Part shown: in pieces, positions 1,467-16,221 of the stretch
Numbering within the stretch: position 1 is the stretch's first letter
How the letters are laid out: the number at the start of each line of letters is the position of its first letter
Source of the DNA: a virus
Virus record (IMG/VR): IMGVR_UViG_3300033405_000009
Reading direction: 5' to 3' (one strand)
Length of the DNA stretch: 18,205 bases
The notes under the pieces: model-generated
What the model was told of the DNA's origin: nothing
Database searches by the model: none
The model's input: only the letters and a program-made list of their open reading frames with translations
Program-made: the position numbers and the translations under genes

Positions 1467-2030
1467 TTAGGCAGCAGCCGGTGGGGGAGCGTAATACTTG
1501 TTTACGAGCTCCATGAACTGAGTCATGGGGAAACTTGGTCCAGGGTCTGTGTGGGTAGTCTCATGATATTTCGCAGAAATTGCAGCATGCGTAGTAATTC
1601 CACATGCAGAATCATCGAGGTCACTTGCCTCAAGAACAGTAGTCGGAAGACCGTTACGAGTGCAGATATCTGCAACCAGTTGAGCACATAAATCGAGCAT
1701 TTGCATATCATTCAACCACTGCTCAGTTGTGTCTCTGGCATATCCGGACATTTCAATATGAATTCCGTGGAGATTGCCAATAGGTCCTGCAGCCCACGCA
1801 GCATCCTTCTCATCTACACACTGGACGATCTCATCGACGTCGACAGTGTAATGGGCTGAGACTTTTGAACTTGCGGCTGCGAACATGTTTGCCACGTTCT
1901 TAGCAGTTACAGTGCTCTCAGTCGCTTCTTCATCATGAAGTACCACCCAGAGTATTTGACGGCCTCCTACGGGGTAGGAATGAATGTTAGGGGACGTAAC
2001 TTGAGAAGTAGCTAGGCTTGATCCGTTCAT
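1467..2030 (-). CDS. N-acetylmuramoyl-L-alanine amidase, Amidase_2 / PGRP / T7-lysozyme fold (AmpD-like or endolysin-like)
   Basis: 187-aa ORF, ATG start, TAA stop. Motifs HYTVDVDEIVQCV...AWAAGP...HGIHIEMSG and ...GITTHAAIS...THTDPGPSFP resemble the zinc-amidase_2 signature. Confidence 0.6.
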   Translation of the reverse strand: MNGSSLATSQVTSPNIHSYPVGGRQILWVVLHDEEATESTVTAKNVANMFAAASSKVSAHYTVDVDEIVQCVDEKDAAWAAGPIGNLHGIHIEMSGYARDTTEQWLNDMQMLDLCAQLVADICTRNGLPTTVLEASDLDDSACGITTHAAISAKYHETTHTDPGPSFPMTQFMELVNKYYAPPPAAA

Positions 2031-2070: not shown

Positions 2071-2403
2071 ATGGGAGAGTTTTGCTATTCCACGGTCAAC
2101 AGTCCTCCGACCCCGAAACAGATGGAAGAAGATCTCATCCGCCTCAACACCGAGATCTTCGGCACCAAATACATCATCAAGAAAATTGATGGTGTCAACT
2201 GGGGCTGGAAATGGTGCTTTATGCTCCCACCAGAATCAGGTTGGACTGATGCAGCCTTCTCTGTGGTTCTATTGCGGGACAAACGAATGGAGTTTAAAGT
2301 CCCGAGATCACAATGGGATGAATATTGGGAGGACCAACAGAAAATCCGCCGTAAACTTGTTCGTCTTTATGGCGGTGCCAAAAGTAAGAAACAGCGCCCC
2401 TGA
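2071..2403 (+). CDS. hypothetical protein (alternative ATG at 2122); 3' end overlaps tRNA1 by 8 nt, convergent
   Basis: 110-aa ORF with globular-looking composition (KYIIKKIDGVNWGWKWCFMLPPESGWTD...). One of very few plus-strand genes in the window. Confidence 0.4.
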   Translation: MGEFCYSTVNSPPTPKQMEEDLIRLNTEIFGTKYIIKKIDGVNWGWKWCFMLPPESGWTDAAFSVVLLRDKRMEFKVPRSQWDEYWEDQQKIRRKLVRLYGGAKSKKQRP

Positions 2404-2467
2404 CAGGATTCGAACCTGCGTCCCCGATTTTGAAGATCAGAGCTCGACCGTTGAGACTTACAGGGGC
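2396..2467 (-). tRNA. tRNA with anticodon UCA (UGA-decoding suppressor or Trp(UCA)-like); discriminator G; CCA not encoded
   Basis: Reverse complement GCCCCTGTAAGTCTCAACGGTCGAGCTCTGATCTTCAAAATCGGGGACGCAGGTTCGAATCCTGTCAGGGGC. Acceptor is 7 bp GCCCCTG/CAGGGGC. T-arm is GCAGG-TTCGAAT-CCTGT. Anticodon arm is CTGAT-CTTCAAA-ATCGG, giving anticodon 34-36 = UCA. The D-arm is irregular: a 3-bp CTC/GAG stem with a GG-containing loop. Confidence 0.65.
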
Positions 2468-2486
2468 ATGGATTCTATCGAAAGTG

Positions 2487-2816
2487 CTATTTATCTTTGA
2501 AATCTTCGATTAAGAAAATTCGTCGTCCAGATGCCTGATAATCGATGTTTCGACGAAGAGGTGGAGCTTTTGCTTCTCCACGAAAAACCTCCATTGTGTG
2601 ATCCCGACAAAGGACACTCTCTTTATCTGGGACGGCCCATCTCATCTCAGTGCAATAAGAACGCATGCATTTGATGGTAGACTCGATAGTAGGCCCTGCT
2701 TCTAGCGCTTTTTGAAGCTCTTCCATTTGAGCCTTTGCGAGCACTTCTCTTTGTTCACGAGCCACTTTAGGGTCGAAATCTAGAAAACGCTGGATAATCT
2801 TTTCTTTATCTTCCAT
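2487..2816 (-). CDS. hypothetical protein (109 aa) lying between the two UCA tRNAs; its ATG starts 1 nt after the encoded CCA of the upstream tRNA
   Basis: ORF with ATG start (cat at 2814-2816) and TAG stop. Contains Cys/His (CMRSYCTE...CRDH). No family recognised. Confidence 0.45.
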   Translation of the reverse strand: MEDKEKIIQRFLDFDPKVAREQREVLAKAQMEELQKALEAGPTIESTIKCMRSYCTEMRWAVPDKESVLCRDHTMEVFRGEAKAPPLRRNIDYQASGRRIFLIEDFKDK

Positions 2817-2891
2817 TGGTGGTTCCGAAGGGGTTCGAACCCTCGTAGGGCGATTTTGAAAATCGCTGCCTGACCACTAGGCTACGGAACC
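2817..2891 (-). tRNA. tRNA with anticodon UCA (UGA-decoding), canonical cloverleaf, discriminator A, CCA encoded
   Basis: Reverse complement GGTTCCG-TA-GCCT-AGTGGTC-AGGC-A-GCGAT-TTTCAAA-ATCGC-CCTAC-GAGGG-TTCGAAC-CCCTT-CGGAACC-A-CCA. Every stem pairs. U33 and A37 are present, and anticodon 34-36 = UCA. The T-arm is palindromic (GGTTCGAACC), but only the minus-strand orientation gives a cloverleaf. Confidence 0.8.
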
Positions 2892-2897
2892 GAAAAC

Positions 2898-3878
2898 TTA
2901 ATGAAGTTCCCATGGCGGTGGACCATCCATATCATACAAGAACCCGACTTCCCAAACCTCATTCACAGGTGGATACTTGCTTTCGTAACGAAATTCGTGC
3001 GTTGTTCCACATTTTGTTCCTTCTTTCGCCAAATATTTGATGATTGAAACAACGTTCGCTCCACCTTGACCTGACTGGACGAGTTTCCGATAAGTGGCGG
3101 TTTTGATTCGCCCAATCTTGTGGAATTTGCGCTGGGCTTCTTCGCCGCCCTTGAGGAGAACATTGTAATCAACTTTCTCGTAAACTTGTTCGGCGCCCTC
3201 GAAGATGACTGTCAATTTCATCCTTTTTCCGGGGTCCACTTCGGTGATCTCGGTCTTGATTCCGACCCCGAATCCGTATGGATTCTTGAAGGTCAGATCC
3301 ACCGAATAGCAATTAGGATTTTTCCGATTGTGCGCGTTTTCTCGATGGTTTCCATTGCACTCGACTGGATAAGCCACCGTCGCATCCATCCCTTTCGGGA
3401 TATACTTGATCATTCGTGTGTGCGGTTGGCGCGAAGTGATTTCCATCCCGCTCATTAACGCGGCTGCATGAAGAGTGGAGCTTACTTGACAGACCCCGCC
3501 GCCGATTCCGGGCGTCATTTCTCCCATAAAAATGACTGGCGCGTCGATGAATCCATTCTCTGCTACGCGAGGCCCGACTACATCATTAAAACTGAACTCT
3601 TGTTGTGGATCCAACACAGTTCGAAGCTTAGTAGCAGCGAGCTCGATGTTGGTAGCTCTCGCGTTTACGTCATATTCGGTTGAATACCGACCTAACTCAG
3701 GGCTTGGACGGTGATCCGGCGGGGGAAGCCTCTCTTGTTCACTCTTGAGTACGGAGATGCCTGGTGAAATCTCCACCATCTCCGGCGGAGGTTCCGCAGA
3801 CTTCTCAGGTGGAGGCGTCGGAGGTGCTGGCCTCGAACAGGCAACCACTAAGAACAAGAGGAAAGTAAAACGCTTCAT
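2898..3878 (-). CDS. VanW-domain lipoprotein
   Basis: 326 aa. Signal peptide MKRFTFLLFLVVAC with lipobox VVAC, followed by a Pro-rich linker. Carries the VanW signature GGGVCQVSSTLHAAAL. The ATG overlaps the pyrE TGA stop (ATGA). Confidence 0.6.
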   Translation of the reverse strand: MKRFTFLLFLVVACSRPAPPTPPPEKSAEPPPEMVEISPGISVLKSEQERLPPPDHRPSPELGRYSTEYDVNARATNIELAATKLRTVLDPQQEFSFNDVVGPRVAENGFIDAPVIFMGEMTPGIGGGVCQVSSTLHAAALMSGMEITSRQPHTRMIKYIPKGMDATVAYPVECNGNHRENAHNRKNPNCYSVDLTFKNPYGFGVGIKTEITEVDPGKRMKLTVIFEGAEQVYEKVDYNVLLKGGEEAQRKFHKIGRIKTATYRKLVQSGQGGANVVSIIKYLAKEGTKCGTTHEFRYESKYPPVNEVWEVGFLYDMDGPPPWELH

Positions 3879-4444
3879 TCCAAGAACTGCTCTTTCGTGT
3901 AGATGGCAATAGCTTCGATTCCGGCAGCTTTGAATGCCTCATCGGCGCCTTCATTACGATTTACAAGCCCCACAACCCCAAGCACCTCGAAGCCTTCATT
4001 TTTCAAGGTTTGGATCGCACGGAGTGAAGAACCGCCCGTGGTAAATACATCCTCAAGAAGGACTACGGGAGTACCAGCAGGAAGAGATCCCTTGCCTTCT
4101 ACAAGAGCGCCCGTCCCATGGTCCTTCTTGGCTTTCCGCACATAGAGGGCGGGCAAATCTTGGATTTCACTCACGGCACTCAAAAGAGATACCGCGCTGG
4201 CTAGAGGACAACCACCAAGTTCGACACCAGCTACGGCTTTAGCATCTGGGAAATTTGACGCGACCGCCTCCAGCATGACCTGTCCGGCCCACAAATGGCC
4301 TGTGGCGTCCAAAATAGCCTGTTTGCAGTCGATGAAGAAATCGCTTTCTTTGCCGGAAGCCAGAGTAAACTTCCCGAAACGGACCGATTTGGTCCGAAGT
4401 AGACGAGCGAGGTCCTTGTGCGGATCGGAGCCTAGGTGAATCAT
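3875..4444 (-). CDS. pyrE: orotate phosphoribosyltransferase
   Basis: 189 aa. FGKFTLASGKESDFFIDCK and the PRPP-binding motif VVLLEDVFTTGGS match OPRTase. TGA stop. Confidence 0.85.
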   Translation of the reverse strand: MIHLGSDPHKDLARLLRTKSVRFGKFTLASGKESDFFIDCKQAILDATGHLWAGQVMLEAVASNFPDAKAVAGVELGGCPLASAVSLLSAVSEIQDLPALYVRKAKKDHGTGALVEGKGSLPAGTPVVLLEDVFTTGGSSLRAIQTLKNEGFEVLGVVGLVNRNEGADEAFKAAGIEAIAIYTKEQFLE

Positions 4445-4854: not shown

Positions 4855-5193
4855 TTACGCCGACATGGACTCAGTTTCCGGCAACGCTAAACCAAGTCCT
4901 CGACACAACCGCCTAGATCGATCCCCTGGCTCGAGAGTAATCGCCGTCAACGCGTTGTTCATGTCAGGCTCTCGGAATTGAGAAATTTGAAGTCCTCGTT
5001 CCTCAGCCTTTTTCACGAGCATTCAAAGCTCGCGCTCGTCACGAACCGCGAGCATGGCGATGTAATTCGAGTTGCGGTACCAATCCATCCAGTCCGGATG
5101 CTCCGCTGCGTACGCCAGCGCTGCATGGATCGATTGCACTGCCTGATCCCCATCCGGAAGATCCGAACGAGTGATGACATACAACTTTTCCAT
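4855..5193 (-). CDS. PTH2-family peptidyl-tRNA hydrolase-like protein interrupted by an in-frame TGA at 5023-5025 (needs UGA readthrough); alternative start GTG at 5229
   Basis: Upstream part KLYVITRSDLPDGDQAVQSIHAALAYA...IAMLAVRDEREL resembles the PTH2 N-terminal half ([25 protein letters not shown]...). Directly after the TGA the same frame continues MLVKKAEERGLQISQFREPDMNNALTAITLEPGD and matches the PTH2 C-terminal half (...AEELGL...DAGRTQIAPGS.TVLAIGPGP). The ORF ends at TAA 4855-4857. Alignment was done from memory. Confidence 0.45.
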
Positions 5194-5614: not shown

Positions 5615-5759
5615 GGTAACTCTCCTGGTAAATGGTAAACGTCGTTGCGAAATTGGGAACGACGGACACCAGGAGGTCCACGGATGCAGTTAATTCAGAG
5701 GTGGTGCTTCATGATTCAACCATCATAACCGTTGTTGCTGCAGCTGTCAAGTTCGGGGT

Positions 5760-5832
5760 GCGCCGAGTCAGATTCGAACTGACACGTGCCCGCTTATGAG
5801 ACGGGGGCTCTGACCGATTGAGCTATCGGCGC
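5760..5832 (-). tRNA. tRNA-Met (anticodon CAU; elongator Met or Ile2-type cannot be distinguished)
   Basis: Reverse complement GCGCCGA-TA-GCTC-AATCGGTCA-GAGC-C-CCCGT-CTCATAA-GCGGG-CACGT-GTCAG-TTCGAAT-CTGAC-TCGGCGC. All arms are canonical. No C1:A72 mismatch or 3 GC anticodon-stem signature of initiators. CCA not encoded. Confidence 0.8.
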
Positions 5833-5841
5833 AGTATGTTG

Positions 5842-5913
5842 TCCGCCGCCCGGGAGTTGAACCCGACCACAAAGTTTATAGGACTTCGTAGCTCAACCGG
5901 AGCGTTGCGGCGG
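5842..5913 (-). tRNA. tRNA-like gene with apparent anticodon UAU (Ile, AUA-reading) but atypical C33 and a short D-loop; possibly aberrant or a pseudo-tRNA
   Basis: Reverse complement CCGCCGC-AA-C-GCTC-CGGTT-GAGC-TAC-GAAGT-CCTATAA-ACTTT-GTGG-TCGGG-TTCAACT-CCCGG-GCGGCGG. The 7-bp acceptor and T-arm are good. The anticodon loop CCUAUAA lacks the conserved U33. Confidence 0.45.
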
Positions 5914-5985: not shown

Positions 5986-6933
5986 TCAAGTGAGTTCTCG
6001 TACTCGTCGGACAATTTTGCGTACCCGCCATGGACGTAGCATCCCAACGACTCCGAGTTTTACAGCGGATACTCCGAGCCTCGTTAGAATCTCAGCGGCT
6101 TCCACCGACATTACCCCACCACCTACGATTAGGGGTTTCTTGAGCTTAGCCATTTTAGCTCTTTGAGCGATCTCAAGTACTAATGGAAAGATTGGATTCC
6201 CTGACATTCCACCACCCCCAATATGGGATAACGGAGAAGCAGACTGTCCCCAAATCTGATTCCAATTGATCTTATGGGATAGATTTCCCCATTTCAGTGT
6301 GTTGGAAACTGAAACTGCATCGCAAGCTGGGTGATTCATGACTTCCCGGATGATCTCCACTGAAATATCAGGTCCGAAGTTGGGGACGAGAGGGATTCCC
6401 AGAACCTTGGCAATGTCCAAAGCTCCACCAGCTTCTTCCGCAAGTTCGGACGTTGAAAGTCCAACATTCGGGCAAGAGAAATTCATTTCTAAAGCGAATG
6501 GACTTTTGAACTCCGGAATGTGAGGTTTGAGCATCTCGACGAAACTGTGAAGTTCCATCATTCTGTGGACGAGAGATGAATCCACGCTCATGAATGAGAT
6601 GAGGAACGGTCTCTCTCGAGCTTGCCATTTACCGCTCATGAGCAACGCATGAGCCCCAGGACCGCTTAATCCCACAGCATTTAGAACGGCCCCCTGAAGG
6701 AACTTAACCTTTATGCAAGAAGGGAGAAGGTCTTTCGGAGAGACTCCATCTGCCTCAAGAGGCATGTTCCCCGCACGGGGGTGGAGGGTCGTGGTTTTAG
6801 CAACGAAGGTGGCCCCTTCATAGTCAAGGCCGAATGGCTTCATTAGCCTATGATACCAATATCCATCTCCGTAAAACCCGAGGGAACCGGATGAGCACCA
6901 AACTGATCCGTATTCCGTCCCTCGTAACTTCAC
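5986..6933 (-). CDS. pyrD: dihydroorotate dehydrogenase, class 1 (active-site Cys)
   Basis: 315 aa. Motifs EMNFSCPNV, GGGGMSGNPIFPLVLEIAQRA and LIVGGGVMSVEAAEILTRLGVSAV. TGA stop. The GTG start as called is uncertain. Confidence 0.75.
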   Translation of the reverse strand: MKLRGTEYGSVWCSSGSLGFYGDGYWYHRLMKPFGLDYEGATFVAKTTTLHPRAGNMPLEADGVSPKDLLPSCIKVKFLQGAVLNAVGLSGPGAHALLMSGKWQARERPFLISFMSVDSSLVHRMMELHSFVEMLKPHIPEFKSPFALEMNFSCPNVGLSTSELAEEAGGALDIAKVLGIPLVPNFGPDISVEIIREVMNHPACDAVSVSNTLKWGNLSHKINWNQIWGQSASPLSHIGGGGMSGNPIFPLVLEIAQRAKMAKLKKPLIVGGGVMSVEAAEILTRLGVSAVKLGVVGMLRPWRVRKIVRRVRELT

Positions 6934-7450: not shown

Positions 7451-7647
7451 CTCGACATTACCAAGAAAGGTCTAATATTGAACGACCAATTTGACTGGTA
7501 GTGTCGCTTTTGAGGATATGGCGAAATGAATTGGAACCATATCCTTGATTGTAAAAGGGATTGGGGATAACCGTCACTACTGTCGGAATCTCTTACCCTC
7601 GACCTGCTAATATGTGGGTTGAACACTTCACTCATCAAGAGGAAGCC

Positions 7648-7821
7648 ATGGCCGCTAAGAAGACTGCAAAGAAGACCGCCAAGAAGCCTGCTGCCAAAAA
7701 GACGGCAGCCAAGAAGGTTGCCAAGAAGACGGCGAAGAAGCCTGCTGCGAAGAAGGCTGTCAAGAAGGCTGCTGCGAAGAAGCCCTCGGCTGCGGCTACC
7801 GCACCGGCTCCTCAGGCCTGA
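7648..7821 (+). CDS. histone H1-like Lys/Ala-rich nucleoid protein (57 aa, AKKTAKKPAAKK repeats)
   Basis: ATG at 7648 preceded by aagAGGAAgcc (SD, about 5-nt spacer). Protein is MAAKKTAKKTAKKPAAKKTAAKKVAKKTAKKPAAKKAVKKAAAKKPSAAATAPAPQA. Followed by a strong intrinsic terminator. The longer ORF call from TTG 7561 and the alternative-frame ORF 7619-7885 are artefacts. Confidence 0.7.
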   Translation: MAAKKTAKKTAKKPAAKKTAAKKVAKKTAKKPAAKKAVKKAAAKKPSAAATAPAPQA

Positions 7822-8271: not shown

Positions 8272-8938
8272 TTACCAGTCCCCTCGCGAGTATTCCTTAT
8301 ATTTCCATTGTCGACCAGTTAGATGGTCATTGACTTGACCATCCTGAACTCGAACAGTTCTTCTCTTATCGCCGCGCATCCCGGACCCCACTTGAGCTCG
8401 TCGATCAGCGGCTCGAGCAGAAGTCACTCTTTCATGCTCCGAAGCCCAGAGACGGGCACGAAGAAGTGAAAGAGCGGTTTCCTTGTTCTGTTTGAGGCTG
8501 CGCTCTGTTTCACATCGAACTTGAAGCCCGGACGGTTCATGCTTTAGAATTATAGCCGTTTCGACTTTATTCCTAGCTTGTCCGCCGGCTCCGGATCCGC
8601 GAGTTGGGATCCATTCGAGATCGTCTTCTCGAATATGAACCTGCGCTTCAGTCGGGATGGGTAAAACTGCGACTGTAATAGTCGAAGTCTGAACCCGGCC
8701 CCTTTTCTCTGTTGGAGGAATCCGTTGCCAGCGATGCCCGCCGGACTCATTCGCAAAGGTCTCGTCTGCTGCCTTCCCGGACACTTGGAAGGTAACGATT
8801 CCCGGTCGTCTGTCCGCTAGTTCGACGTCAAAGACCCCTCCGGACTGCCAAACGGGCGTAAATTCCGAATTGCTCTTCTACGAGGAGTTTGGCGTCTGCG
8901 CCGCCTTCTGCTGCCCTGATCTCGACTACAATACTCAT
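8272..8938 (-). CDS. class-I peptide chain release factor, RF1-like and N-terminally truncated, requiring a +1 programmed ribosomal frameshift at 8828-8833 (CUU UGA C)
   Basis: Frame 0 from ATG (8936-8938, SD AGAGG upstream) gives MSIVVEIRAAEGGADAKLLVEEQFGIYARLAVRRGL then TGA. The +1 frame continues DVELADRRPGIVTFQVSGKAADETFANESGGHRWQRIPPTEKRGRVQTSTITVAVLP...RGSGAGGQ...RTVRVQDGQVNDHLTGRQW. This aligns contiguously with RF1 domains 2-4 (EIRAGTGG...RYAEARRW/RVEIM...GGHRVQRVPATE...SGAGGQ). Shift-site context ccGGAGGggtCTTTGAC matches GGAGG, 3 nt, CUU-UGA-C. Domain 1 (about 105 aa) is absent. The recognition loop PPT fits the RF1 PxT motif, not the RF2 SPF motif. Confidence 0.75.
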
Positions 8939-9090: not shown

Positions 9091-9300
9091 TCATTTTACA
9101 ATCGAAGACTTAAGCGTCCCATCAGGATTGCGAAGGGGATGTTGTTCGAATTTGGGGCGCTTAGGTCCGCAGTGGCCATCCGGCATCACTGCGACACGCA
9201 CATACTTGCCTATGGTTCCAGCGTCCGGATGCCCGCAAGTCAGGTCATCATCCGGTTCCATGTAGGAATGGACGCATGCTTGACAGTTGGGCGAGTTCAT
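9091..9300 (-). CDS. small Cys/His-rich protein (about 69 aa) whose ATG overlaps the SPFH gene's TGA stop (ATGA)
   Basis: MNSPNCQACVHSYMEPDDDLTCGHPDAGTIGKYVRVAVMPDGHCGPK...; TGA stop at 9091. Tentative. Confidence 0.3.
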   Translation of the reverse strand: MNSPNCQACVHSYMEPDDDLTCGHPDAGTIGKYVRVAVMPDGHCGPKRPKFEQHPLRNPDGTLKSSIVK

Positions 9301-10316
9301 TTCTTGACGTCGAGTCCGAACATGAGAGGGCTGCCCTGCGGGAGGATATTGGCTGGCATTCCGCCGTTCCACTTCTTGGCCGCTTCGAGCATAGCCTCGG
9401 CTTGCATGCGCTGAATATCAAGGTGATTCTTCTCGATCAGAGCTTCCTTGGCCTTGGCGAATTCTTCGGCCGCCATACGTTCGGCCCTCGCTGCAGCGAT
9501 CTTCTGCTCATTCTTCTGCTCATTCGCGACTTTCTCTTTACGGGCGATTTCGATGTTCATTTCGGCGTTGGCCGTTTCGTTGATTGCTGCCTGAATCTTG
9601 TCATCGAAGGCCAGACCACCCGCACTTCCGACGTTCTGTACGGTGATTCCGTACGTCTTGAAGTGCTCCTTCGTAAGTTTCTCAACCTCGGCGAACACTC
9701 GACTCTTCTGGACTTTGCACTCCTCCAAGGTCAGGACACCGAATGCCTTCGAAAGCTCGCCCTGAATGAAACCGCGGACGTTCTGATCAACGACTTCTTT
9801 GAGTTGCTTCGTGGTGTGGTAATAGAGATAGACTGGGGCGTCCTCCTCCATTACGAAGGCAGTCATGTTCACACCCACGTGAAAGTTGATACTTTCTTTC
9901 GACTCCACCTCGATGGCTCGCACGTCTTCAACGGGACCGGGAGCCGCTGCGGGTGCTCCAGGAGCTGCGGGTGCTGGAGCCTTGGCTGGCGGCGACGCGT
10001 CGTTCTTGATCCACTCGCGCGTAACGAGACTCCTGTCGACCTTAACGACTCGGACGGTGGGAATCCACTCGTAGTCCCACCACATTCGCCCCGTATCTCG
10101 CTCGCGTACGGAGATCTCGATACGCTTTGCGACGACCTTCTTGGACTCGAGATACTTGATGCTCTCGAACTTCTCCTGTTCCTTGCTGTTTCCTTCGAGA
10201 GGAATGACGAAGGCTGTCTCGTTCGGCCCAACGTTTTCGAGTGGCAGAACTTTCGCCGGGCCACACCCGATCAGGGTGAGCGCGAACATGATGAACCCAA
10301 CATTCGACAGCTTCAT
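9297..10316 (-). CDS. SPFH/band-7 (stomatin/flotillin-like) domain lipoprotein
   Basis: Probable start MKLSNVGFIMFALTLIGC (lipobox LIGC) at 10316, sharing TAATG with the upstream gene. C-terminal SPFH-like region GITVQNVGSAGGLAFDDKIQAAINETANAEMNIEIARKEKVANEQKNEQKIAAARAERMAAEEFAKAKEA. Ala/Pro linker. The antisense ORF 9276-10469 is a shadow. Confidence 0.6.
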   Translation of the reverse strand: MKLSNVGFIMFALTLIGCGPAKVLPLENVGPNETAFVIPLEGNSKEQEKFESIKYLESKKVVAKRIEISVRERDTGRMWWDYEWIPTVRVVKVDRSLVTREWIKNDASPPAKAPAPAAPGAPAAAPGPVEDVRAIEVESKESINFHVGVNMTAFVMEEDAPVYLYYHTTKQLKEVVDQNVRGFIQGELSKAFGVLTLEECKVQKSRVFAEVEKLTKEHFKTYGITVQNVGSAGGLAFDDKIQAAINETANAEMNIEIARKEKVANEQKNEQKIAAARAERMAAEEFAKAKEALIEKNHLDIQRMQAEAMLEAAKKWNGGMPANILPQGSPLMFGLDVKK

Positions 10317-10591
10317 TACCGGTCTCCGTTTGTATTTGGCTTGGTCCAAGGAACGATCCAGATAAGGAAAAGAATTACTGCGAAGAGAGCAAAGCAGGCC
10401 ACATCCGGTAGACTCAACCGACTGATGATCGTCGGAGAACCCATGGGAGTAGCGACGTCTCGCGCCTGACTCAACGCAGCCGCAGTTTCGAAGGGATTGT
10501 ACGCGGCTTGTAAGGCCGCATGAAGCCAGTACATCAAACCGAAAGCGACGAATGTGAAGATGAGTCGCTTAATGAGAGATTCGGTCTTCAT
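10316..10591 (-). CDS. small two-TM membrane protein (91 aa), translationally coupled to the SPFH gene (NfeD-like partner role possible)
   Basis: Hydrophobic segments LIFTFVAFGLMYWL and VACFALFAVILFLIWIV; TAA stop overlapping the next start. Confidence 0.45.
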   Translation of the reverse strand: MKTESLIKRLIFTFVAFGLMYWLHAALQAAYNPFETAAALSQARDVATPMGSPTIISRLSLPDVACFALFAVILFLIWIVPWTKPNTNGDR

Positions 10592-10923
10592 GGGGTTACT
10601 GCTCCAGGTGGCATCGCCATGTTACATGGAACGAAGAATCTTGGAGATGGAGTAGAAATGTCGTGCAAGAAGCAGTATCCGCCTTGCTCATAGAGCACGT
10701 ACGAGCGAGCAGGCTTCGAACTTGACCCATGAGTCTGAGTTTCTGGCTTGTAAGGGACGTACCAGATGATTTTTCGTTCCGGCTCCATCCCAATTTGGGC
10801 CTGGACATATTTGATGACCTGTTCCTTGCTCGGAGCCTCAGGAAGGTCGTCATCGCATCCGGTCAGACAGATGGAAATAACCAAGACCTCCAAGAAGCAA
10901 ATGGGCTTACGGAGTCTGATCAT
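10588..10923 (-). CDS. small lipoprotein (internal start MIRLRKPICFLEVLVISICLTGC, lipobox LTGC)
   Basis: The N-terminal extension of the called ORF is Ser/Arg-rich and non-protein-like. An internal Met gives a classic signal peptide plus lipobox. TGA stop overlaps the next start. Confidence 0.45.
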   Translation of the reverse strand: MIRLRKPICFLEVLVISICLTGCDDDLPEAPSKEQVIKYVQAQIGMEPERKIIWYVPYKPETQTHGSSSKPARSYVLYEQGGYCFLHDISTPSPRFFVPCNMAMPPGAVTP

Positions 10924-11294: not shown

Positions 11295-11927
11295 CTAATC
11301 AGACTTGCGCGTCCAGATAGTCATCATATCATCTCTTTCGAACCATCGTGGGATTTCAACTGTCTTGGAAAGAATGAAATTCTTTCGGAGGACTTTATAG
11401 AACGATGCCCCTGCAGTCATTCCATTGAAGTCCCCAACATAAATGAGAGTTTGACCTTTCCAATATTTCAGACAATCTTTAGCAACCATATGTCTTTTAG
11501 ACTCAGGTGCTAGAGGCTGTTCCATTGGAGGCCAGCATAAGAAGAGGGACCTGTCTCGATATTGTTTCAAATCCCGGGGATCACCCCGGGAAATGAAAGT
11601 AAAAAGATTACCTCCAACATGCCACGGATTGATTCCGAATGGGTCATATCGATCGTAGGCGATAATATCAACCCCGATATATCGGAGTAAATGCGCCCAA
11701 TAACCCATACCGGCCCCCATTTCAACTATCGGGCCATGGGTTGCAATTTCTAGTAACGCCTCCTCAGTAGGTATCGCCCAAGAGATATTCATGCACTCTC
11801 GCATGACTTGGCGGGCTTTGCTGCAATGTTCTAGTGGAAGGCAGTCCAAATACCTGCGGAGGAGGACGTTTTCTCGATGAAGATCTTTATCTTTACCGAT
11901 CCACCTCCGAGAGGATGAGCGGTTCAC
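11295..11927 (-). CDS. putative class-I SAM-dependent methyltransferase
   Basis: Motif I-like IVEMGAGMGYWAHLL, followed by an acidic beta2 end DIIAYD and a possible motif-IV-like CWPP. GTG start overlapping the upstream TGA (GTGA). Confidence 0.45.
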   Translation of the reverse strand: MNRSSSRRWIGKDKDLHRENVLLRRYLDCLPLEHCSKARQVMRECMNISWAIPTEEALLEIATHGPIVEMGAGMGYWAHLLRYIGVDIIAYDRYDPFGINPWHVGGNLFTFISRGDPRDLKQYRDRSLFLCWPPMEQPLAPESKRHMVAKDCLKYWKGQTLIYVGDFNGMTAGASFYKVLRKNFILSKTVEIPRWFERDDMMTIWTRKSD

Positions 11928-12556
11928 TCTGACTTGGGATCTTTGGGCTTGGGCTCCTCCTTCTTCGGCGGAAGCTCCAATTTGCGAAGCAGATCCGGAT
12001 TTTTGAGCTGGGCCACCACCGGACTCATCCCCTGAACCAGAATGCGGAGTCCCTGATCCCGGATCTGGGTCGGATCAATGGCTGCATGGGTCTCGGCCAG
12101 TCGCTTGGCACTATTGGCTAGACGTCGGCTGTTGCGAAGCAGGTCGGTACCGGCCAAGTCCTCATGATCCGAGGTAGCCCGGACCCCGGCCTCCTGGTCG
12201 CGAGGTGATGGAACGGTCCGACGCTTGTATGTCTCCCAGAGAATGCGCTTGATTTGATCCATCTTGCGCTTACGAATGGTCTCAACATCCGGATCAGAGG
12301 GCTTCGGCAAGCGAGGCTTGATGTAAGCATGCTTCGCGAGCCAAACGTAGGGCACGAATCGCTTGGGAGCGACTCGAGCGGCCCAATCGAGAAATTGAGC
12401 GGCCCTGTGGACCTCGGACAGATTCCTGTCCGGGTCGAAATCTTCGAAGCTAATAGTCTTCAGCTTGGGCTTCTTCACCAGCACTTGAGGTGCCGAAGCG
12501 GGTGGCGGCCCGGGTGCTCGGTTAGTGGCCTTCATGGGTACGCTCTCCAGTCGCAT
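11924..12556 (-). CDS. hypothetical basic protein (210 aa)
   Basis: ATG start, TGA stop; Pro/Lys-rich termini. Confidence 0.45.
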   Translation of the reverse strand: MRLESVPMKATNRAPGPPPASAPQVLVKKPKLKTISFEDFDPDRNLSEVHRAAQFLDWAARVAPKRFVPYVWLAKHAYIKPRLPKPSDPDVETIRKRKMDQIKRILWETYKRRTVPSPRDQEAGVRATSDHEDLAGTDLLRNSRRLANSAKRLAETHAAIDPTQIRDQGLRILVQGMSPVVAQLKNPDLLRKLELPPKKEEPKPKDPKSE

Positions 12557-14875: not shown

Positions 14876-15754
14876 TTACGCTCGGGGCGGTGGATAAGCC
14901 ATCACTCGAGAGCGCAGGGACTCAGCCTTGGTTCGACTGCAATTCAAAAGCAAGTGTAGACGAGGGTTATTTCGAAGCCTCTCCACATCTCTATAAAGAT
15001 CATATATTTTAATATCGCGAAGAGGCACAATAAAGCCTCCTCCTGGGGAGGTACGAAATGCGATTGCGCACATGTGCGATCCCGGCCCGTATATGGAACT
15101 GCTTGAATACCGCATGCGAGCCAGAAACTCTGGCTTATAACCTAATTTCTTTTCTAGGAAAGATTCCACCGCTTCAATTCGAGAAAATCCTGTAAATTTC
15201 TTTTCTCTCCCAATAGAAAAATTGCACGCCACGATTCCTCCCGGAGCGACAGCTTTTGCAGCCGCACCAATCCGATTTAGCGTGTAGTCAGAAACTTGAT
15301 TTGAGAAATCCAGATAAATAGATTCGAATGGGATGTGAATGTCGTCTAGGACCTTCGATACGTCTGTATGTAAGATCGTGATGGTTGGAAACTTAACAGA
15401 GAAATTTTCGACGGCTTCTTTGTCAATGTCCACGGCCAACATACTGTCGTCACTAACTCGCAAACCTCTGAGGACTGATGCGTCTCCTCCTTCGCTTGAA
15501 GACAGAAACAGATGAGGACCACTGCGGAAGCGCTTTGGTCCAAGTGCTTCCATAACAGCCTCCCAAATGCGGAGACGGACTGCTTTTTTAGGTTGACTGT
15601 CTCCCCGGTAAGTGCACCGGGTGGCCCTCGTTGGACCCGGTGCACTCGTAGCACACATCGCTCTTATCTCTTCGAGAATGAGTTCTCGAAGAGATTCACC
15701 TACGAGACGTTTAAGGGCCAACCGCGGAGTCATCACTCCACGCGATCGTAGCAC
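14876..15754 (-). CDS. hypothetical protein (292 aa), possibly Rossmann/methyltransferase-like (LAVDIDKEAVENF ... FESIYLDF)
   Basis: ORF with TAA stop; weak motif resemblance only. Confidence 0.4.
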   Translation of the reverse strand: MLRSRGVMTPRLALKRLVGESLRELILEEIRAMCATSAPGPTRATRCTYRGDSQPKKAVRLRIWEAVMEALGPKRFRSGPHLFLSSSEGGDASVLRGLRVSDDSMLAVDIDKEAVENFSVKFPTITILHTDVSKVLDDIHIPFESIYLDFSNQVSDYTLNRIGAAAKAVAPGGIVACNFSIGREKKFTGFSRIEAVESFLEKKLGYKPEFLARMRYSSSSIYGPGSHMCAIAFRTSPGGGFIVPLRDIKIYDLYRDVERLRNNPRLHLLLNCSRTKAESLRSRVMAYPPPRA

Positions 15755-16221
15755 TTCTTGAGGTGCGTGAATGTCATGTGCTTGGCCTGAGTCCGACCCT
15801 TCTCGCTCTTGAGAATCCTCGGGGTAATACCAGTGACATCCATGGACGCGATCTCAATGATCCTATCCTTTACATCGAGATAACTCTTTCCCTTGAATTG
15901 CTGCCCCAGCGCCAAGCCCATCTGACGGGCTACCCTGGGAACCACCGGGGTCTTAGCTTGAAGAGGTGCCGAACCACGAAGCTGCTTGTTTGCAGCCCTC
16001 TTCTTGGCAGCCTTCTTGGCAGATGCACTTCGCTTCGGGTCGGGCGCCTTCTTTGCAGAGGTTGCAGGAGTAGCGAGGGTAGACTCTGGCTCAATGTCCG
16101 GTACCTCCTCTCTCGTGAGTTCCTCCATGAGGACCTCTCGGACGGTCTCCCGGACCAGCTTTCGAAGATCAGCCCCAACGGTTTCTCGAACGATTTCCTT
16201 GACCAGACTTCGTAGATTCAT
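15733..16221 (-). CDS. Lys/Ala-rich putative DNA-binding protein (internal ATG at 16221 preceded by GGAGG)
   Basis: Repeats LVKEIVRETV / LVRETVREVL, then KKAPDPKRSASAKKAAKKRAANK, then a globular C-terminus. SD ggttcGGAGGattcaATG. Confidence 0.45.
   Translation of the reverse strand: MNLRSLVKEIVRETVGADLRKLVRETVREVLMEELTREEVPDIEPESTLATPATSAKKAPDPKRSASAKKAAKKRAANKQLRGSAPLQAKTPVVPRVARQMGLALGQQFKGKSYLDVKDRIIEIASMDVTGITPRILKSEKGRTQAKHMTFTHLKKCYDRVE

Follow-up and report, generated by a model that had tools for sequence, protein, structure and literature searches.

Two tRNA(UCA) genes, an RF1-type release-factor gene with a prfB-like frameshift site and a tmRNA gene in a huge bacteriophage

In the Jade phages, a suppressor tRNA(UCA) is encoded together with the release factor RF1 upstream of the lysis cassette; relatives of the known TGA-recoded phages are depleted of TGA stops (2.7%, for example), and the known recoded phages are of low GC content (Borges et al., 10.1101/2021.08.26.457843). 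A survey of jumbo phages found recoding to be limited to the regions of hallmark genes (PMC13037316), and functional phage opal-suppressor tRNA(UCA) genes for tryptophan occur with either G73 or A73 (PMC12636597). Here we describe an 18,205-nucleotide stretch of viral DNA (IMG/VR record IMGVR_UViG_3300033405_000009; the whole stretch is called the window), in which two tRNA(UCA) genes occur together with the genes of an RF1-type release factor and a transfer-messenger RNA (tmRNA). We observed that both are genes of intact elongator tRNAs with the anticodon UCA, and that they reside in a huge bacteriophage. On balance, we think it probable that functional opal-decoding tRNAs, the RF1-type factor and the tmRNA make up a phage module that alters the handling of UGA in the infected cell. 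The coordinates of the main features are given in Table 1.

Table 1. Main features of the window (positions counted from its first letter)
Feature	Position	Strand	Evidence and remarks
tmRNA, one-piece, tag peptide ANDNAARLAA	888..1240	-	Rfam RF00023, 105.3 bits; ARAGORN
Endolysin (N-acetylmuramoyl-L-alanine amidase)	1467..2030	-	Pfam Amidase_2, 2.4e-20; PHROG endolysin, 1.9e-37
tRNA B, anticodon UCA	2395..2467	-	Rfam RF00005, 45.9 bits, E 3.9e-07; no ARAGORN call
109-aa protein gene	2487..2816	-	42 homologues; CCCH motif, APPLRRNIDY-type motif
tRNA A, anticodon UCA	2817..2891	-	ARAGORN ('SeC' tca); Rfam RF00005 at 2820-2891, 61.0 bits, E 2.7e-11
VanW-domain protein, synteny anchor	2898..3878	-	Pfam PF04294, 1.6e-36
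pyrE (orotate phosphoribosyltransferase)	3875..4444	-	NCBIfam TIGR00336, 3.2e-41; TGA stop overlaps the VanW ATG (ATGA)
tRNA-Met(CAU) and tRNA-Ile(UAU)	5756..5913	-	ARAGORN; Rfam 64.6 bits for the Met tRNA
RF1-type release factor, domain 1 missing, two frames	8272..8938	-	prfA HMM; PPT (PxT) motif, GGQ
prfB-like +1 frameshift site, CGGAGGGGUCUUUGAC	8827..8842	-	Shine-Dalgarno-like GGAGG, 3-nt spacer, CUU, UGA then C

The tRNA(UCA) genes, their conservation and their ancestry

Canonical elongator tRNAs are recognised by a score above the Rfam RF00005 gathering score of 29, a 7-nt anticodon loop with U33, G18G19 and the T-loop GTTCRA; the two genes, here called tRNA A and tRNA B, both qualify as such, with some irregularity in the D-arm of tRNA B (a 2-nt insertion and a U.C mismatch). 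tRNA A has the anticodon loop UUUCAAA, the acceptor stem GGUUCCG/CGGAACC with G1-C72, the discriminator A73 and an encoded CCA end. tRNA B has the loop CUUCAAA, the acceptor stem GCCCCUG/CAGGGGC, the discriminator G73 and no encoded CCA. A tRNA-Sec is expected to have an acceptor/T helix of the 8+5 or 9+4 type, a D stem of 6 bp and a long variable arm. In both tRNAs of the window the acceptor stem has 7 bp, the T stem 5 bp and the variable loop 4-5 nt, and we rejected this identity for them. The preliminary description of this DNA, made from the letters alone, had assigned the anticodon UCA to both minus-strand tRNAs, had noted A73 with an encoded CCA in one and G73 in the other, and had set tRNA-Sec aside; all these points stood when the loops were read from the Rfam alignments. 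It had also proposed ARAGORN as a check, and here the outcome was mixed: the program called tRNA A as tca and missed tRNA B, whose D-arm is irregular, and Rfam recovered the latter. The label 'SeC' was given to tRNA A because of its anticodon tca alone, and annotators should be aware that ARAGORN names such UCA tRNAs in this way. A scan of the strand bearing the tRNAs revealed no terminator-like sites.

We concluded that the source of the window is a huge phage and not a cellular genome in code transition, because a 436,316-bp IMG/VR viral contig bears a homologue of its VanW-domain protein (56% identity) in matching gene order: release factor, tRNA-Ile(UAU), pyrE, VanW, two tRNA(UCA), a lysin-like gene, tmRNA, sigma factor and a 430-aa protein. 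The window also has phage markers, namely the endolysin, a DNA methyltransferase and tail-fibre-like open reading frames (ORFs). Metagenome contigs of 34-63 kb (ENA, Logan and JGI) contain sequence identical to it, and by joining two loci (L001 and L002) we obtained 33.4 kb of this phage with the whole window included; 49.9 kb were assembled for the 436-kb relative. This sampled DNA (~83 kb from both phages) consists of regions for nucleotide metabolism, replication and recombination, with a sigma factor and gp32-, RuvC-, UvsX- and SbcC-like genes among them, and the capsid, terminase and structural blocks lie outside it. The GC content is ~50%.

The VanW-domain gene served as the anchor for following the tRNAs into other phages. 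Each of the homologues P0002-P0005 (49-57% identity) is followed by a tRNA(UCA), which therefore lies directly after VanW in every lineage where VanW is at least 49% identical (five lineages including the window); VanW relatives of 46% identity or less have other tRNAs or none at that position. In the window, the tRNA(UCA) with A73 and CCA and the one with G73 are 349 nt apart, with the 109-aa ORF between them. The 436-kb phage has a U73 tRNA with CCA and a G73 tRNA at a distance of 24 nt, and in L118 an A73 and a G73 tRNA are separated by 3 nt. L116 has one tRNA(UCA) with G73, after which the contig ends; L117 has one with G73, plus an A73 tRNA with the loop CUAAACA. Thus, the anticodon UCA is kept in eight of the nine tRNAs at this locus, and the Rfam scores are 45-63 bits. 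On aligning the eight UCA tRNAs (pairwise identity 47-81%), we observed that the UUCAA columns are invariant and that 14 of the 20 cloverleaf pairs have both-sided compensatory changes, so that all four stems are kept. Because of this invariance and compensation, the alignment points to selection acting on the fold and on the anticodon. The tRNA(UCA) is a conserved trait of a small clade of huge phages, in which one or two such genes always follow directly on a VanW-like gene, with a lysin-like gene and a tmRNA further downstream. An exact-pattern scan of IMG/VR for the tRNA A type returned the 436-kb contig only.

Two further observations were made on the tRNAs of related phages. In L117, the sequences flanking the tRNA(UCA) at 1404-1479 (~1370-1403 and 1494-1527) resemble a split second tRNA, with a 5' half (GGGTCTGTAGCTCAGTTGG...) on one side and a 3' half (...GCGGGTTCGACTCCCACCAGGCCCTCCA) on the other, and it looks as if one tRNA was inserted into another; the intron mode of ARAGORN gave no call there. 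Related huge phages have a tRNA(UUA), a reader of UAA, in place of the UCA type, at 7629-7705 of LR745208.1 (L006) and at 19804-19880 of L016, both from ARAGORN only. In LR745208, this tRNA gene immediately follows a homologue of the small protein encoded at 5023-5193 of the window.

Next to tRNA A, the 109-aa gene was said in the preliminary description to start 1 nt after the CCA; it does adjoin the tRNA, with a gap of 0 nt. Its family comprises 42 representatives at E<=1e-3 (representative search; the best has 57% identity, 3e-30), and C50, C55, C70 and H73 as well as the motif PP.R..DY..R are conserved in the family alignment. The protein had no matches in Pfam, PHROG or NCBIfam. In the relatives the two tRNAs sit 3-24 nt apart with nothing coded between, and the gene is missing from all of their loci. 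It is a lineage-specific insertion outside the conserved unit, because among 2.06 Mb of loci it was found only in this phage. We could make out no Shine-Dalgarno sequence before the ATG of the gene, which directly adjoins the CCA of tRNA A; we speculate that processing of the tRNA 3' end could yield a leaderless message for it.

The ancestry of the two tRNAs was searched by blastn among 50,697 GenBank phage records (INPHARED). For tRNA A, the best match was a tRNA-Arg from Kuravirus phages of E. coli, at 84% across nt 6-61; for tRNA B, it was a tRNA-Arg from Proteus phages, at 86% across nt 30-70. ARAGORN assigned the anticodon UCU to both matched genes, which have GGA (A20) in the D-loop and the anticodon loop CUUCUAA. 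Aligned with these Arg tRNAs, every UCA tRNA shows a U or C after the GG, at position 20 (U in place of A20 in tRNA A), and has A36. From this we infer that the UCA tRNAs arose from phage genes of the tRNA-Arg(UCU) type by replacement of U36 with A, A20 being lost as well. The identity elements of tRNA-Arg for the E. coli ArgRS are A20, C35 and U or G at position 36. As A20 is gone and A36 is present in all of them, the UCA tRNAs should now be poor arginine acceptors by the E. coli ArgRS rules.

The identity elements of bacterial tRNA-Trp are G73, the anticodon bases C34, C35 and A36, and the pair A1-U72. The tRNA in the second position has G73 in every lineage and the one in the first position A73 or U73, and all of them have G1-C72 and U34. 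The combination of G73, C35 and A36 in the second-position tRNA fits bacterial Trp identity. The preliminary description had pointed to G73 as a Trp element, and tRNA B does have this base; the bodies of both tRNAs resemble tRNA-Arg(UCU), and not tRNA-Trp. It had further proposed two different suppressor or reassignment tRNAs. The discriminators do differ, but this is no proof of different amino acids, because phage Trp-tRNA(UCA) genes are found with G73 and with A73 (PMC12636597).

The RF1-type release-factor gene and its frameshift site

In bacterial prfB, the gene of RF2, an autoregulatory +1 frameshift takes place at CUU UGA C preceded by a Shine-Dalgarno-like element. A site of the same kind was observed in the release-factor gene of the window. 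Gene callers cut this gene into a 170-aa fragment (8272-8784) and a 36-aa ORF (8828-8938), which is another pitfall for annotators. The 36-aa ORF, MSIVVEIRAAEGGADAKLLVEEQFGIYARLAVRRGL, ends at TGA, and the +1 frame goes on as DVELADRRPG...GGHRWQRIPPTEKRG...SGAGGQ.... The junction reads CGG AGG GGU CUU UGA C, the sequence of the frameshift site being GGAGGGGUCUUUGAC. The joined protein of 221 aa scored 194.6 bits with the prfA model, 127.6 with prfB and 69.4 with prfH, in one alignment that runs across the junction; domain 1 is missing, because this alignment covers only model positions 105-317 of 347. The prfA and prfB scores, together with the motif PPT (PxT) in place of SPF, led us to reject an RF2 identity. 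PrfH (RF-H) was rejected as well, its score being far below the TIGR03072 cut-off of 166.65, and the common feature is only the missing domain 1.

An identical 16-mer occurs at the matching place of the release-factor gene in the 436-kb relative, in LR745208.1 and in three more huge-phage contigs of IMG/VR, which makes six phage lineages; two other matches to the 16-mer pattern were due to chance. Hence, the architecture, the continuation in the +1 frame and the conservation are all those of a predicted prfB-type frameshift. We rejected 0-frame readthrough of this UGA as the productive route. The +1 shift appears to be productive because the 0-frame continuation is unconserved and soon meets more stops. 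In LR745208, the homologue of the release factor is also devoid of the PxT loop (QRTSNGRIHSS).

Since the factor is RF1-type (PxT), its frameshift would sense the speed of UGA decoding, by RF2 or by the suppressor tRNAs, and not its own product. The connection of this factor to the tRNAs is circumstantial. It is weakened because the frameshift site is more widespread than tRNA(UCA), and the release factor with the site is also found in phages without such a tRNA, for example LR745208 (36 tRNAs, none of them UCA). In the literature that could be searched, we found no description of a frameshift in a phage release-factor gene; Al-Shayeb et al. reported RF1, RF2 and tmRNA in huge phages and did not mention this feature.

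Usage of UGA and the function of the locus

We monitored the usage of TGA in the sampled DNA of both phages. Among the 56 called genes in ~33 kb of this phage, the stops are TAA in 24, TGA in 18 and TAG in 14, and there is not a single internal stop; in-frame TGA is likewise absent from ~50 kb of the 436-kb relative. TGA therefore ends 32% of the genes here (18/56) and 48% in the relative (31 of 64 ORFs), ATGA overlaps included. Genes ending in TGA include pyrE, the pyrD-like gene (5986-6843), and those at 9297-10316, 11924-12556 and 15733-16221, among others. ORFs of translation table 11 tile both regions at a density of 0.91-0.92, and the endolysin and two tail-fibre-like ORFs are in the standard code. 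No backup stops follow the TGA codons, the next TAA or TAG being 1-64 codons further on. Because TGA is a common stop and backup stops are lacking, efficient suppression would lengthen many phage proteins. Neither of the signs of code-4-type recoding, internal TGA and depletion of TGA stops, is found in the sampled DNA. A host genome of code 4 or code 25 was rejected on the basis of the phage context, the standard-code genes and the GC content of 50%. We also rejected same-frame readthrough for an ORF pair of the 436-kb-relative assembly (39097-40866; L119 10001-11770); these are two genes, because a hairpin lies between them and the second has its own Shine-Dalgarno sequence.

These results bear on several claims of the preliminary description. 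Its statement that TGA ends at least six well-supported ORFs, including pyrE and pyrD, was confirmed by the gene calls, and it rightly held that any decoding of UGA must be partial or conditional, as TGA works as a stop nearby. It had proposed to look for in-frame TGA in conserved genes, and this search came out negative throughout the ~33 kb and ~50 kb. It had likened the locus to that of a recoded phage or an organism in code transition; the phage was correct, whereas no transition host is involved and the sampled genes are in the standard code.

The module that we favour could work as follows. The tRNA(UCA) would be made during infection and charged by a host synthetase or by a phage synthetase not yet seen. 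Tryptophan would be our best guess for the universally present G73 type, and we leave the A73/U73 type without assignment. The charged tRNA would compete with the host RF2 at UGA, which would become partly readable. The genes for these tRNAs would belong to a standard-code early or middle region, near those for nucleotide metabolism, the sigma factor and recombination. The RF1-type factor without domain 1 would keep termination going at UAA and UAG, and its synthesis, which would need a +1 slip at UGA, would respond to the speed of UGA decoding. The tmRNA would clear ribosomes running off the ends of messages. In its function, such a module would resemble the 'code-change' module of the TGA-recoded Jade phages. 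An extended form of this proposal seems distinctly unlikely to us: a switchable circuit of UGA reassignment in a UGA-stop phage, in which two Arg-derived suppressors of different acceptor identity insert two residues (Trp and a second one as candidates) and decoding is ambiguous or dual-purpose by design. In such a circuit, the RF1-like factor would arise only upon pausing and slippage of a ribosome at a UGA, so that its level would report the state of UGA decoding (RF2 versus suppressor tRNA), and the tmRNA would remove the products of readthrough.

Several of our observations weigh against the proposed module. In-frame TGA is absent from the sampled genes of both phages, which tile well in the standard code; TGA is in heavy use as a stop, and no backup stops are present. 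No aminoacyl-tRNA synthetase, TrpRS included, was seen in the sampled DNA. The D-arm of tRNA B is a possible weakness, the A73-type tRNA of L117 has lost UCA, and the release factor with its frameshift site exists in phages without tRNA(UCA).

Among the other explanations, classical late-gene recoding of the Agate or Jade type would place in-frame TGA, read as an amino acid, in structural or hallmark genes outside our sample. The make-up of the module and its place beside the lysis gene match the published code-change module, the jumbo survey confines recoding to the hallmark-gene regions (PMC13037316), and the ~83 kb sampled are gene classes expected to stay in the standard code. However, the endolysin and the two tail-fibre-like ORFs have no internal TGA and one of these ends in TGA, no TrpRS was seen in the sampled DNA, and TGA is the commonest or second-commonest stop in a DNA of ~50% GC, in contrast to the depletion and the low GC of the known cases. 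Because of these abundant TGA stops and this GC content, late-gene recoding is less likely here than in the published cases, and we consider it rather unlikely. It is also rather doubtful, and to a similar degree, that the phage has no recoded genes at all and that the tRNAs cause a general low-level readthrough of UGA, serving host takeover through mis-termination of host proteins, the production of minor, C-terminally extended variants of phage proteins or the buffering of UGA mutations that arise from CGA, AGA or UGG. Every sampled gene being in the standard code agrees with it, and so does the standard-code megaphage G, which has a suppressor tRNA(UUA) and tmRNA (PMC12484599). Related huge phages have tRNA(UUA) instead, the tmRNA at the locus would handle ribosomes reaching message ends, and bodies derived from tRNA-Arg fit the repair of CGA- or AGA-to-UGA changes. 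On the other hand, the TGA-ended genes of the phage itself would be extended as well, by 1-64 codons, no benefit is evident here, and the retention of two UCA tRNAs in several lineages suggests a specific need for decoding.

A role at sense codons has less to recommend it, and we think it improbable: a Trp tRNA reading UGG by U34 wobble, or a tRNA still charged with arginine, would supplement the host pool and read UGA only incidentally. The other tRNAs of the phage belong to the U34 type that serves codons ending in A (UAU, UGU and UUG), huge phages have large tRNA sets, and a tRNA-Trp(CCA) was not seen in the part of this phage that we sampled; but UGA is the best partner of the anticodon UCA, charging with Arg is disfavoured under E. 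coli-type rules by A36 and by the missing A20, an ordinary CCA tRNA provides Trp in a related huge phage, and a single sense codon needs no two copies with different acceptor ends. It would be most surprising if the genes were decaying copies or had a non-translational role, as integration sites, processing signals or decoys. The compensatory changes that keep the four stems, the invariant UUCAA and the Rfam scores of 45-63 bits versus a threshold of 29 argue to the contrary, even though tRNA B has the irregular D-arm missed by ARAGORN, one relative has the loop variant CUAAACA and apparent remnants of a split tRNA, and tRNA genes are common attachment sites, with one weak blastn match to an attP core.

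Neighbouring features and comparison with known systems

The proteins of the window include the amidase endolysin, the VanW-domain protein, pyrE, a dihydroorotate-dehydrogenase-like protein, the DNA methyltransferase and the release-factor homologue, with many ORFs belonging to no family. Megablast with the entire window retrieved no matches from the phage collection, and a metagenome scan with the upstream 137-aa protein also gave none. The endolysin gene is the next one downstream of tRNA B and has no in-frame TGA. A syntenic tmRNA with the tag ANDNGALRIAA is present in the 436-kb relative. We assume that the ANDN...LAA form of the tag is similar to that of proteobacterial tags; the host may then be one that uses the standard code.

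In a full-genome comparison, LR745208 (485 kb; standard code) has few genes in common with the window phage, and LR756511 (595 kb) has one protein in common with it. A capsid-like bait from LR745208, used both on its own and in a profile of 26 sequences, retrieved 120 proteins from 80 loci, none of them from the 436-kb contig. The helicase-like ORFs of LR745208.1 at 293815-296667 and 297554-300547 (L011/L012) have intein-looking stretches, as judged by eye from Hint-type motifs.

Genes of pyrimidine synthesis cluster at the tRNA/VanW locus: pyrE and the pyrD-like gene (5986-6933) in the window, and dihydroorotase in a relative. A PTH2 peptidyl-tRNA hydrolase is also encoded in relatives; the stretches concerned in L116 are 1030-2954 and 3711-4049. 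One segment of 1.3 kb has a long ORF on each strand, at 9165-10655 (+) and 9210-10568 (-); the latter matches a PHROG 'lipoprotein' and is the one picked by the gene callers. A near-consensus sigma-70-type promoter (TTGACA, 17 nt, TATGAT; 11/12) lies at 5722-5750 (-), just downstream of tRNA-Met; promoter-like sites in the scanned region are no commoner than in shuffled sequence. The ENA and Logan assemblies and one JGI assembly all stop ~8-11 kb past the low-coordinate end of the window (L002 ends ~9.7 kb beyond position 1); a repeat or a hypervariable stretch may lie there, or the genome may end.

If the tRNAs are active, this clade would be a natural instance of UGA suppression in phages that rely heavily on UGA for termination. 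It would represent the ambiguous intermediate state which models of codon reassignment require and which is rarely observed. The locus may also represent a new kind of regulation, where an RF1-type factor is gated by an RF2-style frameshift and its synthesis reads out the activity of another factor or of the suppressor tRNAs. Work on genetic-code expansion might draw on the Arg-derived UCA tRNAs without A20, as candidates for orthogonal opal suppressors.

Of the described systems, the code-change module of the Jade phages comes with a tRNA(UCA) and an RF1-type factor, a standard-code module just upstream of the lysis gene, and the present locus is alike in these respects: tRNA(UCA), an RF1-type factor and an adjacent endolysin, which is not recoded, are all found, and no aminoacyl-tRNA synthetase in the sampled DNA. 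It is unlike the Jade module in having two distinct UCA tRNAs with no TrpRS seen in that sample, a release factor without domain 1 and with a +1 frameshift at UGA, and a tmRNA in the locus. Moreover, in-frame TGA is absent from the lysis gene here, genes often end in TGA, the GC content is ~50% and the genome is of the 400-kb class. The phage Trp opal-suppressor tRNAs AP1 (G73) and HF2 (A73) are likewise phage-borne tRNA(UCA) with either discriminator; they come with a cognate phage TrpRS and their insertion of Trp was shown, whereas the bodies of the tRNAs described here are Arg(UCU)-like (PMC12636597). Megaphage G resembles this phage in being very large, with standard-code genes, a stop-reading tRNA and a tmRNA, but it has a single tRNA(UUA) for UAA, and no link to a release factor was reported, where two tRNA(UCA) are found here (PMC12484599).

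Like bacterial prfB, the release-factor gene codes for a class-I factor and contains CUU-UGA-C, preceded at 3 nt by the SD-like GGAGG; it differs in being RF1-type, in the missing domain 1 and in the position of the site at codon 37 (in domain 2) instead of codon 26. The tRNA-Gly(UCA) of code-25 and the tRNA-Trp(UCA) of code-4 bacteria are also UCA tRNAs of ordinary shape that make UGA a sense codon. Those bacteria have neither UGA stops nor RF2, whereas UGA ends a third to half of the genes here, and the U73 of the Gly type is seen only in the first tRNA of the 436-kb relative. The tRNAs of the window are therefore of a known kind, phage suppressor tRNAs; what is new is their paired, Arg-derived form, their occurrence in a huge phage rich in UGA stops, and the frameshift-gated RF1-type factor.

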